Position numbers and translations under genes: made by a program. From a virus (taxonomy: Duplodnaviria > Caudoviricetes): a stretch of 64,000 nucleotides of DNA. The stretch lies in the IMG/VR virus record IMGVR_UViG_3300035180_001680; one strand, written 5' to 3'. Within the stretch, counting starts at the first letter, position 1; the number at the start of each line of letters is the position of its first letter. The notes under the pieces were generated by a model that saw nothing but the letters and a program-made list of their open reading frames with translations, was not told the origin of the DNA and did not search any database. This document shows, one piece after another, positions 14,897 to 52,062 of the stretch.

Positions 14897-17419
14897 ATGA
14901 AAGCACAGATAGTAATTGGGGCAAATTTCGGAGACGAAGGGAAAGGTGGCACAGTTGATTATCTTGCTTCCCAAGTTGATAATACGATTGTTGTTCGGTT
15001 TAATGGAGGCTCTCAGGCAGGACATTGTCAAACTGGAGATACTTTAATCACAACTCAGTTTGGACTTAAATATATTAAAGATGTTGTGGGAAATATTACT
15101 AACAGCGATGTAAGTTTTCCGCTAATTAATATGAACGGAGATATTGAACACACGAGTTGGCTGTTCACCGAACACTCAAAACAAGTAAACCGAATAACCC
15201 TTCAAAATGGAGTAGTACTTAAAGGGACTCATGCACACAAATACTATGTTTGGAATGGGAATACTGCTCAACTTGAGTGGGTTAAAATAGGAGATTTAAA
15301 CCCAAATGTCCACCAATTTATAGTTCCAAGATATTTCGACCAATATTTGGGTGTTATTCCTAACATTCAGTACGTTCAATCAGAAACTGATCATGTTCAC
15401 AATAAACGAAAGATTGATGTTGATATTATCGATCTTGAATTTTTAGCTTTTTTAACTGGAATTATTAATGGAGATGGACATTATGCTTCTCATGGAAGCC
15501 GAATTTCGATCCAATGTCACATTTCTCAACAGGACACAATTGATTATGTTGTTTCTGCGTTGACACTCATGAACATTCCTGTAAAAACACAGTCCCATCA
15601 TTCGAGTGACCAATGTATTACTATTGCGTTTGAGAGTAGTGACCTTATTAACATTTTACGAGACCAATTGGGGGTTGCAATTACAACTGGTGTTAACAAG
15701 TGTACCCCAAAGTTTGTATTACAGGGTACCAGAGGTATAATTCGTAGTTATATACGAGGTTTGTTTGACGCAGACGGAACTATTAAATTTCATAAACAAA
15801 AAACAACCACATATGGTCAAATTGGGTTTTCTAACATATCTTGGGAACTGGTGTCAGAGGTCCAACAATTGCTGTATTTATTTGGAATTCACTCAAAAGT
15901 TATAACAAATAAATTAAATAAAAAGCGGTCAAATTGTCAACGATCGTATGATTTAATTATTGCATCATATGATGCTATTGAATTGTTTGCACAAAACATA
16001 GGATTCCAGTCTGATATTAAAAACAATAAAGTGGTTGAGTTGTTGGCGTATAAACAAAACGCAAATAGTAATTGTAACACCAAAGGATATGTACTTAAAG
16101 TCCCCCCAAATATCAAAAAGGCAATATATAAACAACTAAATTGTGTATGTCATGATAGTGAAGGAATCCGAACTGGGTTTGTGGTCAACGAAAAGATTGA
16201 AAATTTTGAAAATATTGTAAACGTAGCAACGAACTATCATATAATCAATATTGAATCTGTTGACATGAATTTTAGTATCGAACAGGTATATGATGTTACG
16301 ATGCCTATAACACATAGTTATATTGCCAATGGATGTATATCTCATAACACAGTAGAAACTCCCGAAGGCCTTCGTCATGTGTTCCATCATTTTGGATCAG
16401 GGACATTAATTGGAAAACCGACATATCTGTCAAGGTTTTTTGTCGTGGACCCAGTTGCTTTCTATTCTGAGCATAATTCTTTTAATCATAAGGGAATCAA
16501 GCCAAAAGTATTTGTTGATGTGAATGCCTATCTTGTAACTCCATTTGATGTAGCAATCAATCAAACTGTTGAACGCGCTCGTGGAGAACGTAAACATGGA
16601 AGTTGTGGGTTTGGAATCAATGAAACTGTTGAGCGCAATACGACTCGAGCATTTCCTGGGTTTGGTACAACTGTTGCTGATATTCTTAATCCAGACGAAC
16701 TTCGTAAGAAATTAAAACAAATTCGAGATGATTATACACAAAGCCGCCTTGAACAACTTGGGGTTGCATGTGGTGCTCTTGATGAGTTTTATATGTTTGT
16801 TGAAGCAATCGAATGGTTCATTGATCGGTGTATGTATATGCTGGAAAACATAACCACAGTTACCAACCCGGAGTTCCTACACAACTACGATACGGTTGTT
16901 TTTGAAGGTGCGCAGGGATTGTTGCTTGATGAATTTCACCACTGGTTTCCTCATGTAACTCGGTCAAGGACAGGTGTGTTCAACGCTTGTGAAATTTTGA
17001 AAGAGATTGGAGTTCATGAAGCCGAAGTGTTCTATATCACTCGGTCGTACCTGACAAGACACGGAGCAGGGCCCTTGCCGTTTGAAGTAGATGGACCAAT
17101 CTATGAAGGAATTATTGATAATACGAACGTTCCCAATGAACACCAAGGAACGTTGCGGTATGCACCACTGAACTTTGATTTGTTGGAAGAAAGTATCATC
17201 AATGATTTGGAAACAGTGGCAGGTGTTAGATTGAGTCCGAAACTTGTTGTTACGTGCATGAACCAACTTCCTGAAAAAGTTAAGTATGTAGAAGACGGTG
17301 AAGTGGTCACTGGATGTAAATTTGATTTGATTTACAACCTTTCGTCTTTTGGTAAAAAATTTGATTCGGTGCTGTTGTCGTATAGTCCAACCAGGAATTT
17401 AATGTCCAGATTGGTGTAA
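14897..17419 (+). CDS. purA: Adenylosuccinate synthetase-like protein containing an intein
   Basis: GANFGDEGKG, RFNGGSQAGH|T, FEGAQGLLLD, VTRSRTG, TRSYLTRHGAGP. Confidence 0.85.
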   Translation: MKAQIVIGANFGDEGKGGTVDYLASQVDNTIVVRFNGGSQAGHCQTGDTLITTQFGLKYIKDVVGNITNSDVSFPLINMNGDIEHTSWLFTEHSKQVNRITLQNGVVLKGTHAHKYYVWNGNTAQLEWVKIGDLNPNVHQFIVPRYFDQYLGVIPNIQYVQSETDHVHNKRKIDVDIIDLEFLAFLTGIINGDGHYASHGSRISIQCHISQQDTIDYVVSALTLMNIPVKTQSHHSSDQCITIAFESSDLINILRDQLGVAITTGVNKCTPKFVLQGTRGIIRSYIRGLFDADGTIKFHKQKTTTYGQIGFSNISWELVSEVQQLLYLFGIHSKVITNKLNKKRSNCQRSYDLIIASYDAIELFAQNIGFQSDIKNNKVVELLAYKQNANSNCNTKGYVLKVPPNIKKAIYKQLNCVCHDSEGIRTGFVVNEKIENFENIVNVATNYHIINIESVDMNFSIEQVYDVTMPITHSYIANGCISHNTVETPEGLRHVFHHFGSGTLIGKPTYLSRFFVVDPVAFYSEHNSFNHKGIKPKVFVDVNAYLVTPFDVAINQTVERARGERKHGSCGFGINETVERNTTRAFPGFGTTVADILNPDELRKKLKQIRDDYTQSRLEQLGVACGALDEFYMFVEAIEWFIDRCMYMLENITTVTNPEFLHNYDTVVFEGAQGLLLDEFHHWFPHVTRSRTGVFNACEILKEIGVHEAEVFYITRSYLTRHGAGPLPFEVDGPIYEGIIDNTNVPNEHQGTLRYAPLNFDLLEESIINDLETVAGVRLSPKLVVTCMNQLPEKVKYVEDGEVVTGCKFDLIYNLSSFGKKFDSVLLSYSPTRNLMSRLV
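15026..16348 (+). mobile_element. Intein (441 aa) with LAGLIDADG homing endonuclease
   Basis: Starts CQTGDTLI, ends YIANGCISHN followed by Thr; LTGIINGDG and IRGLFDADG motifs. Confidence 0.93.
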
Positions 17420-17802: not shown

Positions 17803-17831
17803 TTGACATAGATATTTTAATAATATATACT
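17803..17831 (+). promoter_or_regulatory. Strong sigma70-like promoter upstream of the riboswitch
   Basis: TTGACA-17 nt-TATACT. Confidence 0.8.
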
Positions 17832-17883
17832 TGTGTCAGATGTTAGAAATTTAGTTCTGACATTGAACTAAAAAGAAAAAGAA

Positions 17884-17975
17884 AGTTCTTGTAAAGGGCA
17901 AACCAATTCGAAAGATTGGGACGCAAAGTAACCCGGCCTAAAGAGAAATCCATGGCAGCGGAACTACCTGGAATC
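17884..17975 (+). ncRNA. c-di-GMP-I (GEMM) riboswitch aptamer
   Basis: AGGGCAAACCAATTCGAAAGATTGGGACGCAAAG..CCGGCCTAAA..ATGGCAGCGG..CTACC closely matches the Vibrio Vc2 aptamer from memory; GAAA tetraloop and receptor present; G at the position-20 equivalent. Confidence 0.92.
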
Positions 17976-18014
17976 TTCTTAGATGTAACACTAATCTAAT
18001 TGGAGATCCAAAAA

Positions 18015-18773
18015 ATGAAAAAAACCCTTATTGCTCTTGCTCTTGCTTCAATCTCTACTGCTGCCTTTGCTACTGGTTCCGACGCTACTGTTTATGCAAA
18101 TAGTCAAACGTCTACCTATGCCCAAGCTGGTAATGGTGGTACTTCCCATTCAACTGCTGGCAACTTTGCAGTTGGCGCTGGCGACACCGATTCTAATGTT
18201 CGTCGTGGGATGTTGTCCGTTACCGTTCCCAACTGTAACGTTCCAACCACAGCTACTGTGTTTGGTGATGTCACTACAGTAACTGGTGAAGCATCCACTA
18301 TGGGTGGCTCGTTTGCTAAGAACGTTTCTACAGGAAACGGTACTGGTGAAGCCCACGCACTTGGTGTAGCTGTTTCCGACGTAGCTAAAACACGTAATGG
18401 TGTTGGTGGAACTGCAAGCGCGTTGACCAAAACTTGGGCAAATGCCGGAACTGATCAAAGTCACTCGTCTTTTGCTTCACAAAGCGCCAACTTCGAAGCA
18501 CAGGGTGCAACTGGTTTGTTGATTGTTACCCACGACGAGACCGCCAGCATCCATCACCACACCGTCACTATTCCTCACGTTGACTACGTTGGAGTTGGTG
18601 CTGCATCCACTGGTACCTCTGACGTTCCTGCTGCACATCAGGTGTATAGCTTGAGCAACGGTGGTTGCCACGGTGGTTGCCAAACTGGTCCAGGTAATGA
18701 TGATGCTGGTAGCTACACCAATGCGAACGCAACTACACTGACTAACGTTACCTACGGCAACATTCCTCAGTAA
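18015..18773 (+). CDS. Secreted Ala/Gly/Thr/Ser-rich protein
   Basis: Signal peptide MKKTLIALALASISTAAFA; GGAG RBS; low-complexity mature region. Confidence 0.8.
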   Translation: MKKTLIALALASISTAAFATGSDATVYANSQTSTYAQAGNGGTSHSTAGNFAVGAGDTDSNVRRGMLSVTVPNCNVPTTATVFGDVTTVTGEASTMGGSFAKNVSTGNGTGEAHALGVAVSDVAKTRNGVGGTASALTKTWANAGTDQSHSSFASQSANFEAQGATGLLIVTHDETASIHHHTVTIPHVDYVGVGAASTGTSDVPAAHQVYSLSNGGCHGGCQTGPGNDDAGSYTNANATTLTNVTYGNIPQ

Positions 18774-18791
18774 TAGTTAAGTTGACTGAAT

Positions 18792-18818
18792 TACTATGCG
18801 TGGTAACCACGCATAGTA
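18792..18818. repeat. Perfect 27-bp inverted repeat between operon genes 1 and 2
   Basis: tactatgcgtggt-a-accacgcatagta; no U-tract. Confidence 0.8.
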
Positions 18819-18847
18819 CAACAATTCCATCAAAAAGGAAAAAGTAA

Positions 18848-19405
18848 ATGAAAAAAATTGCTCTTATTATCGTGTTGACAATGTCGATGCCGGTGTTTGC
18901 TGCTGGTACAAGTTCGAGTTCTACGTCTGATTCGTATGCGTCGAGTGATGGTAACTCCCAAACCATTATCTACAACAACCCGGCCATTCCAACTACAACC
19001 ACACAGAATGTTAACTACTCTGGTGGAACAACATCTGATGTGAACACAACAGTCAACGGTACCACGACTCAGAACATTGTCCAGTCAGGAACAACCGGTC
19101 AAAACGTGAACTACAGTGGAACACAGACCATTAAAAACGTGCCTTCTGTTGGCGGTCCTGCTCTAACAAGCTCGAACGACACTTGTATGGGTTCTACTTC
19201 TGGTGGTATCGGTGTTGCTGGCTTCGGTTTCAGTCTCGGTTCTACGTGGACTGACAAGAACTGCAAAATGTTGAAGAACTCTCGTGAACTTTGGAACATG
19301 GGTATGCGTGCTGCTTCTATGGCTCGCATGTGCATGGACAGTGAGAATCGCGAGGCGTTGGAACTGACTGGTTTTACTTGCCCTACCAAAAAAGAAGACA
19401 AGTAA
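18848..19405 (+). CDS. Secreted protein with Cys-containing C-terminal domain
   Basis: Signal peptide MKKIALIIVLTMSMPVFA; Thr/Ser/Asn-rich linker; DTCMGSTSGG...FSLG...NC..LK..REL..MG...MC. Confidence 0.8.
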   Translation: MKKIALIIVLTMSMPVFAAGTSSSSTSDSYASSDGNSQTIIYNNPAIPTTTTQNVNYSGGTTSDVNTTVNGTTTQNIVQSGTTGQNVNYSGTQTIKNVPSVGGPALTSSNDTCMGSTSGGIGVAGFGFSLGSTWTDKNCKMLKNSRELWNMGMRAASMARMCMDSENREALELTGFTCPTKKEDK

Positions 19406-19432
19406 TCCATAACCCAACGAAAGGAGAGTAAC

Positions 19433-19873
19433 ATGAAAGTTTTAATTACGACACTACTTGCAGCGGCTTCGTTCTCTGCCCTGGCAGGAGATTTGGTAAT
19501 AGAACGTACGCCTCTTGGTTCCGGAACTCCAGGTCTTGAAGGTAGAGAAGCAACATATCTCATGCCAGATGGAATGCTGTTTGCTCCTCAATATCTTCCT
19601 AGCTTTCCAACAGCTGCGGTCATCTGGCCGAGGGTTGTTGAAGTTCAGTGTGAGTTGAAAGATAAAGTCACAGTTTGTGACGGATACCAATGGACGCCTA
19701 AATTGGGACGTGGTGAATATATTTTCATCGTTCCAGTTAACAAACCAGTTCCTCCTGCTCCGATTATCGTAACAAACACGATAGAACGAGTGGTGACAGT
19801 TCCGCTACCTGCTCAACCAGTAGTGGCACCTGAGACGCTGCCTCCAGCGCCCGACAAGAAAATTGGTGGTTAA
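19433..19873 (+). CDS. Secreted protein with Pro-rich C-terminus
   Basis: Signal peptide MKVLITTLLAAASFSALA; two Cys; GGAGAG RBS. Confidence 0.8.
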   Translation: MKVLITTLLAAASFSALAGDLVIERTPLGSGTPGLEGREATYLMPDGMLFAPQYLPSFPTAAVIWPRVVEVQCELKDKVTVCDGYQWTPKLGRGEYIFIVPVNKPVPPAPIIVTNTIERVVTVPLPAQPVVAPETLPPAPDKKIGG

Positions 19874-19875
19874 TG

Positions 19876-19903
19876 AAAATGGGGACTTCGGTCCCCATTT
19901 TTT
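19876..19903 (+). terminator. Intrinsic terminator closing the riboswitch operon
   Basis: aaaatggggac-ttcg-gtccccattttt. Confidence 0.9.
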
Positions 19904-19929
19904 ATTCTAATACTATAAACTATACACAT

Positions 19930-20286
19930 ATGATTACTGTAAGCATTTTAGTGGCAACAATTTGTTTCTCTGTTAACAACATAGAGGAATGCCACCCTAT
20001 ATTAATTGGTAAAAATACTCCAATCGGAACGTTTCCAATCACACATATGACTACAAAGAAACCAGGGTATGGTGGAGATATTTTAGTATTCAAAGAAACA
20101 TCAACCACCCTTTATGCTATTCATCGTCTCTGGAAATTTAACCCTAAGCAAAAACGTGAGCAACGTTTAGCAACAGCTACCCCAAAAGATAATATAATCA
20201 CAAGTGGTTGTATTAACGTTGAGTCTAAAGTGTACGAACGATTAACAGCGTGTTGTTCAAAAGAACCACTTGAAATCAAGAAGTAA
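19930..20286 (+). CDS. L,D-transpeptidase-like (YkuD-fold) protein
   Basis: PGYGGDIL.F, YAIHRLW, IITSGCINV (catalytic His and Cys equivalents). Confidence 0.7.
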   Translation: MITVSILVATICFSVNNIEECHPILIGKNTPIGTFPITHMTTKKPGYGGDILVFKETSTTLYAIHRLWKFNPKQKREQRLATATPKDNIITSGCINVESKVYERLTACCSKEPLEIKK

Positions 20287-20316
20287 ATCGTGTATAATAT
20301 CCCCATGGAGGACTTT

Positions 20317-20709
20317 ATGAAATCGATTTTGTTTGCTTTACCCCTGTTTGTTTTTGGTTGTAGCTCGTCGCCCCCACCAAAACCTGAAAATACTGAATGT
20401 ATCCAAGTTGCAAAGTACGCTCGAACAGTTGCTACACTTCGTGATATGAATGTTTCTGAATCAGACATTGATTCATTTTCGCAAGTTCCTATTGCACTCA
20501 CATTTCCGTATCGAAAGGTGAGAAGTGAAGTATATGCTACAAAAACTGAAACCCCTGCGGATGCGTTTACTAAGTTTTATCACAGATGTGATGAGGCTGG
20601 ATATTCAACACTTTTACAAGCACTCCAAGAAGATGAACGAAGAAGAATTGCAGAAGAGAAGAAAAAAAGCAGCGGAGGAAGAAGCAACACGTCAACAACG
20701 AATTATTAA
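20317..20709 (+). CDS. Lipoprotein (paralog of 22597)
   Basis: Lipobox VFGC; CIQVAKYARTV.TL...LTFPY..VR..VY...TP..AFT motif shared with 22597. Confidence 0.75.
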   Translation: MKSILFALPLFVFGCSSSPPPKPENTECIQVAKYARTVATLRDMNVSESDIDSFSQVPIALTFPYRKVRSEVYATKTETPADAFTKFYHRCDEAGYSTLLQALQEDERRRIAEEKKKSSGGRSNTSTTNY

Positions 20710-50298: not shown

Positions 50299-52062
50299 AT
50301 GACAGAAGTTTCAACAAGCAAACAATTCCACGATGTACAATATCTCACTCTTTTACGAGACATTTTAGATAATGGACGCGCTTGTGTAGATAGAACTGGA
50401 ACTGGAACTGTTAAAGTATTCAGTCGACAAATGAGGTTCGATCTCTCTGATGGGACTATCCCCCTCTTAACAACAAAGAAAATGCATCTTCCAGCGGTAC
50501 TTCATGAAATTTTGTGGTATTTAAGTGGAAATAGCAACATCAAATATCTTCAAGATAATGGAATTCGAATTTGGAATGAATGGTGCACTCCTGAAGGACA
50601 TCTGAATAAGGTGTATGGATACCAGTGGAGACACTGGGAAAAGGATGATTGGTTATCATCTGTTGTTGAAATTAAAAAGCGTTCTGGAGGAATCAATGAA
50701 CCGTTCATTCCCCCTGTGAATGAAAAATTGAACCCTGAAACAACAGACGACGATTTCGTTGGGAAAAAATTACAAACACGGTTTGGTGATTGGTTTACAG
50801 TAGTCAATAAAGAGTGCAAACCAGGTGATAAGAACAGTACGTATGTGATTCAATTTGAACAAACGTCTACTATTAAGAGAGTGTTACGTCCAGTATTACG
50901 AACAAAACAAATAAACATCCGAGATCCATATAGAATTAGTGTTTATAATGAGGGATGTTTGGGGGAATATAGAGAATATACACCGATTCGAAACCAAGCA
51001 TATAATCTTTGGTATAACATGATGAGACGTTGCTTTGATCCGTCTCATCCAGAATATTATTTGTACGGCCACAGGGGTGTTTTTGTTGATAAATCCTGGA
51101 GATGTTTTTCAAACTTTCTTCGGGACATTCATGACTTACCTTATTTTTCAAAGTGGGCAGCAAATCCATCAGCATACGATCTCGATAAAGATTATTTTGG
51201 TTCTTCTTCATACAGTAAATTCACCTGTATATTTCTCCCTAAAAAATATAATCAGGTTCTTCCAAAACTTGATGGTTGCAAATATATTGCAACAAACAAA
51301 CAGACTGGTGATTGTTATGATTTTACTGTTCCAAGGTGGTTCGCAAAACAGGTTGGAATTAAGCACAGTCAGATAATTTCGACTGCATTAAACAATTCTC
51401 CCAATTCTCAAACTCGTGATTGGAAGTTTGAACGGATTGAACCTCGTGAAGGATATGTATTTAGACATCAGTTGTATGTCGATCAAATCGCTGATGTTGT
51501 TCGTAAACTGAAAACTAACCCCGACGATCGCCGAATTATGGTTAGTGCTTGGAACGTTGGAGAGATTGATCAAATGAGACTTCCGCCGTGCCACTTCACG
51601 TTTCAATTCTTTTCAACTGAAATGACACAACCCGAACGACTCAAATGGTTTCAATTTGCTTTCGGGGAATACAATCTTGACGGTATGTCTTGGAACATGG
51701 TTAACGACATGCTTAATAATCACAATGTGCCAACTCGTTCTCTAAGTTGTGTGATGCACCAACGCAGTTGTGATACATTCCTGGGTGTTCCTTTTAATAT
51801 CGTTCAGTATAGTATTATAACAAGAATGTTGTGTGAAGTTGTTGAAATGGCTCCAGGTGAATTTATTTGGGACGGGGGAGATGTTCATATCTACAACAAC
51901 CACATTGAGCAGGTTAAAGAACAACTTACCAGAACTCCTCGTGCTTCCCCAACTCTTGAGTTCGCTCGTGCTGTTGACAATATTGACGATTTCAGATACG
52001 ATGACTTCGTGATAAATGATTATGACCCCCTCCCAGCTATCAAAGCAAAGGTGAGTGTATGA
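50299..52062 (+). CDS. thyA: Thymidylate synthase with an in-frame HNH-like insertion
   Basis: DRTGTGT, PLLTTKK, YGYQWR, DQI, DRRIMVSAWN, LPPCH, QRSCD.FLGVPFN, GDVHIY.NH. Confidence 0.93.
   Translation: MTEVSTSKQFHDVQYLTLLRDILDNGRACVDRTGTGTVKVFSRQMRFDLSDGTIPLLTTKKMHLPAVLHEILWYLSGNSNIKYLQDNGIRIWNEWCTPEGHLNKVYGYQWRHWEKDDWLSSVVEIKKRSGGINEPFIPPVNEKLNPETTDDDFVGKKLQTRFGDWFTVVNKECKPGDKNSTYVIQFEQTSTIKRVLRPVLRTKQINIRDPYRISVYNEGCLGEYREYTPIRNQAYNLWYNMMRRCFDPSHPEYYLYGHRGVFVDKSWRCFSNFLRDIHDLPYFSKWAANPSAYDLDKDYFGSSSYSKFTCIFLPKKYNQVLPKLDGCKYIATNKQTGDCYDFTVPRWFAKQVGIKHSQIISTALNNSPNSQTRDWKFERIEPREGYVFRHQLYVDQIADVVRKLKTNPDDRRIMVSAWNVGEIDQMRLPPCHFTFQFFSTEMTQPERLKWFQFAFGEYNLDGMSWNMVNDMLNNHNVPTRSLSCVMHQRSCDTFLGVPFNIVQYSIITRMLCEVVEMAPGEFIWDGGDVHIYNNHIEQVKEQLTRTPRASPTLEFARAVDNIDDFRYDDFVINDYDPLPAIKAKVSV
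50650..51470 (+). mobile_element. Homing-endonuclease-like (HNH/His-Me finger) domain inserted in frame in thyA; boundaries approximate
   Basis: YNLWYNMMRRC...YYLYG.RGV.V...W..F.NF...LDKD...YS..TC.F.P..YN between YQWRHW and VDQI; no intein termini. Confidence 0.7.

Follow-up and report, generated by a model that had tools for sequence, protein, structure and literature searches.

The c-di-GMP-I riboswitches Vc2 (tfoY) and Vc1 (gbpA) of Vibrio cholerae possess the three-helix junction of Rfam family RF01051 together with a GAAA tetraloop, a receptor-like motif and the residues G20, A47 and C92, and both lack a terminator, so that regulation has to act on translation initiation or on a later step. 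The GEMM-Ib riboswitches of Geobacter, which recognise 3'3'-cGAMP, adopt the same fold and belong to the same Rfam clan but carry A at position 20. Phages rarely make use of riboswitches (PMC5473149), and, according to the same survey of 2017, the only phage-borne c-di-GMP-I cases in print are Cdi1_4 and Cdi1_5, which reside in two phiCD119-like prophages of Clostridioides difficile (Sudarsan 2008, via PMC5473149 and PMC3649979). As far as they are described in these sources, the latter two belong to temperate Firmicute prophages and lie within the lysis module.

The window, by which we mean the whole stretch of 64,000 nucleotides that was analysed, harbours a leader which agrees with Vc2 and Vc1 in all of the features just mentioned and which shares with Cdi1_4 and Cdi1_5, to the extent that the cited sources describe them, the placement of a c-di-GMP-I aptamer on a phage genome. 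Aptamer class and platform type are both already known; a full-text literature search yielded no report of a c-di-GMP-I riboswitch in a jumbo or huge phage. From the identity of the aptamer, mutually exclusive pairings, conservation and covariation we predict that the leader functions as a translational ON switch responding to c-di-GMP, a reading which is the best supported of those considered and to which, taken as a whole, we assign a probability of roughly two in three. The coordinates of the features on which it rests are compiled in Table 1.

Table 1. Features of the riboswitch leader and of the operon downstream of it (positions refer to the whole window).
Feature	Position	Strand	Evidence or remark
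Sigma-70-type promoter TTGACA-17-TATACT	17803..17831	+	11/12 consensus positions
5'-terminal stem-loop of the leader, 10 bp, loop 17849-17854	17839..17864	+	minimum-free-energy fold
A/G-rich spacer	17865..17884	+	G17881, A17882 and A17883 at its 3' end can pair with the anti-SD, extending P1
P1 5' strand GUUCUUG	17885..17891	+	register as P1 annotated in the Rfam c-di-GMP-I-GGC model
c-di-GMP-I (GEMM-I) aptamer, RF01051	17887..17971	+	64.2 bits (gathering score 35)
Shared switching strand	17968..17978	+	P1 3' strand CUGGAAU (17968-17974), then anti-SD CUUC (17975-17978)
SD-sequestering hairpin	17969..18010	+	-12.5 kcal/mol, z -2.8; 3/200 shuffles fold as well
Shine-Dalgarno (SD) GGAG	18002..18005	+	9 nt before the ATG; within the 3' arm of the hairpin
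Gene 1, 252-aa exported G/A/S/T-rich protein, signal peptide ending AFA	18015..18773	+	ATG at 18015
Intergenic hairpin, 12 bp, without U tract	18792..18818	+	56-nt stretch folds at -19.7 kcal/mol, z -4.8
Gene 2, 185-aa exported protein, conserved four-Cys C-terminal domain	18848..19405	+	phrog_20531
Gene 3, 146-aa exported protein, two invariant Cys	19433..19873	+	sequence comparison
Intrinsic terminator closing the operon	19875..19907	+	-18 kcal/mol, z -5.1, then U run

That the locus is phage-encoded, as the first-pass annotation had held, is corroborated by the long-tail-fibre and virion PHROG families of the window and by the 338,129-bp phage contig on which the gene 2 product sits. Further PHROG families comprise NAD-dependent ligase and thymidylate synthase, and the window additionally encodes NAMPT and an adenylosuccinate synthetase. 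An intein with a LAGLIDADG endonuclease domain splits the gene of the latter (14897-17419), and the thymidylate synthase gene (50299-52062) contains an HNH endonuclease-like insert. A PrkA/YeaG-like kinase of the window finds its closest relative, with 68% identity, in an Enterobacter phage, followed by uncultured phages of 630-640 kb and a Ralstonia phage of 344 kb. The sequencing runs which contain the stretch are sediment and microbial-mat metagenomes, with no RNA run among them. Neither DNA nor protein of the locus is matched in INPHARED, a collection which may leave out records close to the window, and the 106-aa protein encoded upstream has no match among the viral contigs. Exact-pattern scans for the aptamer of this lineage in metagenome contigs and in genome contigs returned nothing.

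The aptamer aligns to RF01051 over the full length of the model (positions 1-87 of 87; E = 2.9e-10 for the whole window), which is the sole Rfam family matched in the 64 kb, and thereby bears out the near-canonical GEMM aptamer that had been recognised from the letters alone. The comparison of the c-di-GMP-I model with its relatives, proposed in the first-pass annotation, places RF01051 above its cut-off, with two models of the same clan scoring lower and being suppressed. The RNA consists of the junction pairs, of P1a capped by the GAAA tetraloop (17910-17913) and of P1b bearing the receptor-like motif CCUAAA/CAUGG, the two halves of which agree with the Rfam consensus columns CUAA and uAuG; a GNRA tetraloop on P1a and a tetraloop receptor in P1b, i.e. 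the hallmarks of a type 1 GEMM RNA, are hence both present. In the Rfam alignment G17897, which precedes the first junction pair, is equivalent to G20 of Vc2, in agreement with the earlier assignment of G to this position, while A17925, following GACGC, is equivalent to A47 and C17967, the second base after P1b, to C92. The Vc2 numbers were placed on the columns of the model according to the known structure of Vc2, and the mapping additionally makes use of the GGC variant model, in which the base that follows GACGC is a different one. The signatures of the variants c-di-GMP-I-GGC and c-di-GMP-I-UAU (RF03167 and its sister model of the clan), namely G at position 47 and U/U at positions 20 and 92, respectively, are absent from the window, where position 47 is A and positions 20/92 are G/C, and RF01051 gives the highest score. 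The A at position 20 by which GEMM-Ib is defined is likewise absent. At the level of sequence, membership of the c-di-GMP-I class is confirmed, and the predicted contact set is of the canonical c-di-GMP type, not of the A20 cGAMP type.

Near-identical leaders are present in three metagenomic contigs (G001/L017, L060 and L063), and three further, diverged phage lineages carry the leader as well, with 77% identity in the one measured. The aptamers of these lineages score 57.5 bits (L034-36), 77.0 bits (L146/147) and 55.5 bits (L148/149) against RF01051. In every case the leader precedes the same module of exported proteins, to which gene 2 belongs. L146/147 and L148/149 were reached via close homologues of gene 2, and in them the site is flanked by NAMPT and the gene 2 homologue, which is also the arrangement of the window. 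The consensus promoter described in the first pass was found to be near-consensus, and transcription is likely to start near 17838; the other three lineages possess a -35/-10 pair with a spacer of 17 nt at the same place (TTGACT/TACAAT, TTGACA/TATTGT and TTGACA/TAGTAT). The 5' stem-loop recurs in the other lineages, too, in L035 according to its fold and in L146 and L148 as read from the sequences, and the sole variant inside it is that of L060, which concerns two bases both located in the loop. The untranslated leader comprises 177 nt, and a terminator scan of it detected no terminator-like site between aptamer and start codon.

The register of P1 follows the GGC model, which leaves six bases unpaired on the 5' side, ahead of the junction pair, and two on the 3' side, behind P1b. 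In this register the 5' strand of P1 pairs with CUGGAAU, leaving one U.U mismatch. The pairing can be continued by G17881-C17978, A17882-U17977 and A17883-U17976, by which the anti-SD is captured through the purine tract 17881-17883. Alternatively, the same strand forms the 5' arm of the hairpin which holds the GGAG in its 3' arm. Both this hairpin and the overlap of its left arm with the 3' strand of P1 had been claimed before and are found as described. As P1 with its extension (partner strand 17881-17891) and the masking hairpin (partner strand 18002-18010) both draw on strand 17968-17978, the two pairings are mutually exclusive; P1 proper competes with only the bottom 5 bp of the hairpin stem. 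A helix which masks the SD and excludes P1, in a leader lacking an intrinsic terminator, is the arrangement expected of a platform of the translational ON type. P1 is weak, containing G.U pairs besides the U.U mismatch, and its duplex amounts to only -6.3 to -7.6 kcal/mol. The duplex between shared strand and purine tract attains -7.6 kcal/mol in the window, a value reached by 35 of 2000 shuffled sequences; in L035 the native value is reached by 136 of 2000. The complementarity of purine tract and shared strand thus beats shuffled sequences only marginally.

According to the mechanism we propose, the transcript would be made by host RNA polymerase (sigma-70 type). Without ligand, the shared strand would form the hairpin arm, GGAG would be masked and gene 1 poorly translated. 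Binding of c-di-GMP at the three-helix junction, contacted by G17897, A17925 and C17967, would stabilise P1, which together with its extension would withdraw the shared strand and free the ribosome-binding site. A high level of c-di-GMP in the host would then turn on translation of the three exported proteins (18015-19873), and coupling, mRNA stability or Rho polarity would presumably extend the control to genes 2 and 3. From aptamer and platform we infer both the binding of the ligand and this direction of regulation in vivo; the phage would in this way read the biofilm or sessility state of its host.

The ON reading advanced in the first-pass annotation gains support from computation, since P1 lowers the calculated cost of opening the ribosome-binding site, as well as from the comparison of the four lineages. 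In the window, opening of nucleotides 18000-18027 costs 8.4-9.7 kcal/mol without P1 and 4.1 kcal/mol once aptamer and P1 are imposed; the corresponding decrease is from about 11 to 5.6 kcal/mol in L035 and from 8.7-9.3 to 2.1 kcal/mol in L148. In L146, where P1 is poor in this register and position 20 is C, the cost falls only from 8.7 to 6.7 kcal/mol. Imposing P1 on the ensemble has a price of about 8 kcal/mol, which is within reach of tight c-di-GMP binding as known for Vc2. The doubt which we retain about the proposed mechanism stems in part from the weakness of P1 and from the SD staying partly paired after formation of P1, its first two G remaining engaged in a small local hairpin of the forced-P1 ensemble. 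This pairing, along with the residual opening cost, would suit an RNA that binds c-di-GMP and exerts its effect by some other route than unmasking, be it mRNA decay, Rho-dependent termination or an OFF response in which the ribosome is hindered. Both ON and OFF switches exist among c-di-GMP-I riboswitches, and the length of the leader as well as the strong non-terminator hairpin following gene 1 leave room for decay or for Rho. We yet consider such an output unlikely: as P1 and hairpin compete for one strand, a stabilised P1 can only weaken the hairpin, the leader is devoid of a terminator, and the computed ensembles contain no ligand-free structure which frees the SD, its unpaired probability in the partition function without P1 being 0.00-0.03. 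For the last reason an OFF switch was rejected as the main model.

The translational ON switch is further backed by the pattern of sequence change. In L060 the aptamer is identical at all 85 positions although the flanking genes share no more than 72-78% DNA identity; differences in its leader are confined to the -35 box, to the loops of the 5' hairpin and of the masking hairpin, and to three spacers, namely that of the promoter, the A-rich one and the one between SD and ATG. Across four sequencing runs only two variants fall within aptamer and platform, namely 17991 C>T, which is located in a loop, and 17935 G>A, the dominant allele in one run, which converts a conserved G-C pair of P1b to an A.C mismatch. 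Among the four lineages compensatory changes, as expected of an RF01051 RNA, are seen in P1a (A-U/G-C/U-A and U-A/C-G), in P1b (U-A/C-G and mismatch/U-A/C-G) and in the second junction pair (C-G to U-A). The shared strand shows changes of the same kind. Position 17969, a U in the window which faces U in P1 (U.U) and A in the hairpin (U-A), is replaced in L035 by G, giving G.U and G-C, respectively, and G17970, which forms G.U in P1 and G-C in the hairpin, is replaced by U, giving U-A in both. Two bases of this strand hence appear to covary with both of their partners, as expected of a switching strand, a finding supported by few lineages (four). The masking hairpin is predicted in all other lineages as well (L035, -12.0 kcal/mol; L146, -11.3 kcal/mol; L148, -10.1 kcal/mol). 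In each of the four its 5' arm starts 1-6 nt after the C92 equivalent, with the 3' strand of P1 beginning at +1, its apical stem is self-complementary though of unrelated sequence, and a CU-rich anti-SD is paired to GGAG, with a purine tract complementary to this anti-SD lying upstream. To judge from these predicted folds, it is the architecture of the expression platform and not its sequence that has been conserved.

The residues at the contact positions bear on the identity of the ligand. As phages encounter CBASS signals and the specificity of GEMM-I RNAs shifts with a single exchange at position 20, exemplified by GEMM-Ib, the natural ligand might be another cyclic dinucleotide such as 3'3'-cGAMP and the phage would sense an immune signal; the sister lineage L146 indeed bears C instead of G at this position, the other five of the six aligned relatives having G. 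We regard this as very unlikely for the element in the window since G20, A47 and C92 are all retained there, in three other sequences of its lineage, in L035 and in L148, since the A20 that defines recognition of cGAMP is absent, and since the variant models of the clan score below RF01051. The aptamer of L146 (1376-1458; also present in L147) combines a high score of 77 bits against RF01051 with C at the position-20 equivalent and a weak P1. This lineage may have retuned the phage sensor in its affinity or specificity.

To delimit the distribution of the aptamer, 43 viral loci with the gene 2 module were scanned with Rfam and 80 bacterial or MAG loci with a covariance model of our own. Among the viral loci it was found in L017 and L034-36, most related phage loci being without it, and none of the 80 bacterial or MAG loci contains it according to the covariance model, which recovered the positive controls. 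Most of these 80 loci belong to Comamonadaceae (Comamonas, Variovorax, Polaromonas) and to Oxalobacteraceae, Noviherbaspirillum for example, and some of them are probably binned phage contigs. The survey of related jumbo phages which had been suggested in the first pass thus reveals the aptamer in several lineages and its absence from five related large phages, as RF01051 has no match anywhere in their records, which are 71-100% complete (CheckV). Because the aptamer is absent from the bacterial loci and from many phage loci, the pairing of c-di-GMP sensor and gene 2 module is, as far as sequence comparison can tell, phage-specific and limited to some lineages. That the aptamer is a non-functional passenger copied along with host DNA, the hairpin acting as a constitutive translational damper, is the least probable reading of all, for although gene 2 and gene 3 homologues in bacterial chromosomes suggest that the module was acquired from hosts and most related phage loci lack the aptamer, it does not travel with the host cassette in any of the 80 loci, is invariant where its flanks have diverged in L060, and stays intact by compensatory changes in lineages whose proteins are only 41-68% identical.

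Two side observations concern other RNAs of large phages. An unrelated large phage (G008, a viral contig of 234 kb; loci L014/L144/L150) carries a GEMM aptamer ahead of a gene for a signal-peptide protein. This aptamer reaches 75.1 bits with RF01051; its best Rfam match is RF03167 (66.3 bits), yet its position 47 is A. A pistol ribozyme (65.3 bits) is situated 1.4 kb upstream of it and an HD-GYP-type (HD_5) gene about 14 kb upstream. A related viral contig (L039:5074-5371) encodes a permuted tmRNA (75.1 bits).

The operon which the ON switch would control encodes three proteins each of which displays, by eye, a Sec-type signal peptide. None of them has a match in Pfam or NCBIfam, gene 1 has none among the PHROGs either, and only gene 2 falls into a PHROG family, the role of which is uncharacterised. 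The terminator closing the operon was missed by the terminator scan and confirmed by folding. The intergenic hairpin following gene 1 could be an element of mRNA processing or stabilisation or else mark a recombination boundary. Gene 2 has 961 relatives at E <= 0.001 among 1166 candidates, none of them informatively named. On phage contigs of up to 385 kb gene 3 comes after gene 2 with hardly an exception, and the two genes beyond it are often there as well; the order gene 2-gene 3 is seen in 42 of 43 viral and 68 of 80 bacterial loci. Past the terminator (19930-20709) two further genes encode a 118-aa protein (phrog_38499) and a 130-aa protein which is lipoprotein-like by eye; of the 43 viral loci, 31 have the former and 11 the latter in synteny with genes 2 and 3. 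The SGCINV motif of the 118-aa protein recalls L,D-transpeptidases by eye, without a match in Pfam. The structure model of gene 2 is poor (pLDDT 55); that of gene 3, though usable (pLDDT 72), matched only an uncharacterised homologue and, compared with the PDB, nothing. For gene 1 the ESM Atlas offered DUF6322 and HfaD as leads. Because their scores of 0.80-0.86 are at chance level by the calibration of the tool, we refrain from assigning this protein a function as amyloid, curli-like factor or holdfast. The export signals suggest that genes 1-3 may play a role in the envelope or the matrix.

A homologous arrangement is encountered in an ordinary chromosomal setting in Comamonas testosteroni (L102:3139-4950), where a gene for a low-complexity secreted protein is followed by homologues of genes 2 and 3. 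Such gene 2-gene 3 pairs (L064-L143) exist in several copies per Comamonas genome, and chromosomes of Variovorax, Polaromonas, Noviherbaspirillum and others carry them, too. Genes 2 and 3 are an uncharacterised exported cassette common to phages and Burkholderiales. In close relatives the sequence of gene 1 becomes unrelated from just after the conserved signal-peptide codons, and in co-occurring strains (L017, L060, L063) identity is lost at 18056 and 18090 and returns within gene 2 at 19027 and 19115, the part in between being unrelated. A gene 2 homologue with a low-complexity N-terminal region follows the leader directly in L063, L035, L146 and L148; a separate gene 1 is absent from L063, the gene 2 homologue of which is longer. 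By this pattern of breaks gene 1 behaves as a cassette which is swappable between strains. Tentatively, and with more doubt than confidence, we suggest that early-type promoter, c-di-GMP ON riboswitch and first signal-peptide codons together form a kind of conserved socket into which a family of jumbo phages recombines different genes for exported cargo, so that a strain-specific set of surface or periplasmic proteins would be deployed only while the host is in its biofilm state with high c-di-GMP. If this is true, the exported set might exclude superinfecting phages or remodel the matrix.

If the sensor is indeed kept by selection across giant-phage lineages, these viruses would read the decision of their host between sessile and motile life and adjust their programme of exported proteins to it. 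The 215-nt leader would offer a simple and testable entry point into the adaptation of lytic phages to biofilm hosts, and it would provide a handle on a large uncharacterised exported family, the 961 relatives of gene 2, of which Comamonadaceae and Oxalobacteraceae also have multiple copies in their chromosomes.

Set against the systems described so far, the element of the window differs from Vc2 and Vc1 in that it is encoded by a jumbo phage, in that a separate SD-masking hairpin uses the 3' strand of P1 as its 5' arm, in that a purine tract captures the anti-SD, and in that it precedes exported proteins of uncharacterised role. From the GEMM-Ib riboswitches of Geobacter it is set apart by the G at position 20. 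Unlike Cdi1_4 and Cdi1_5, it belongs to a phage of virulent type with a genome of about 338 kb, is preceded by a sigma-70-type promoter, operates by what we predict to be a translational platform and recurs in several diverged lineages.
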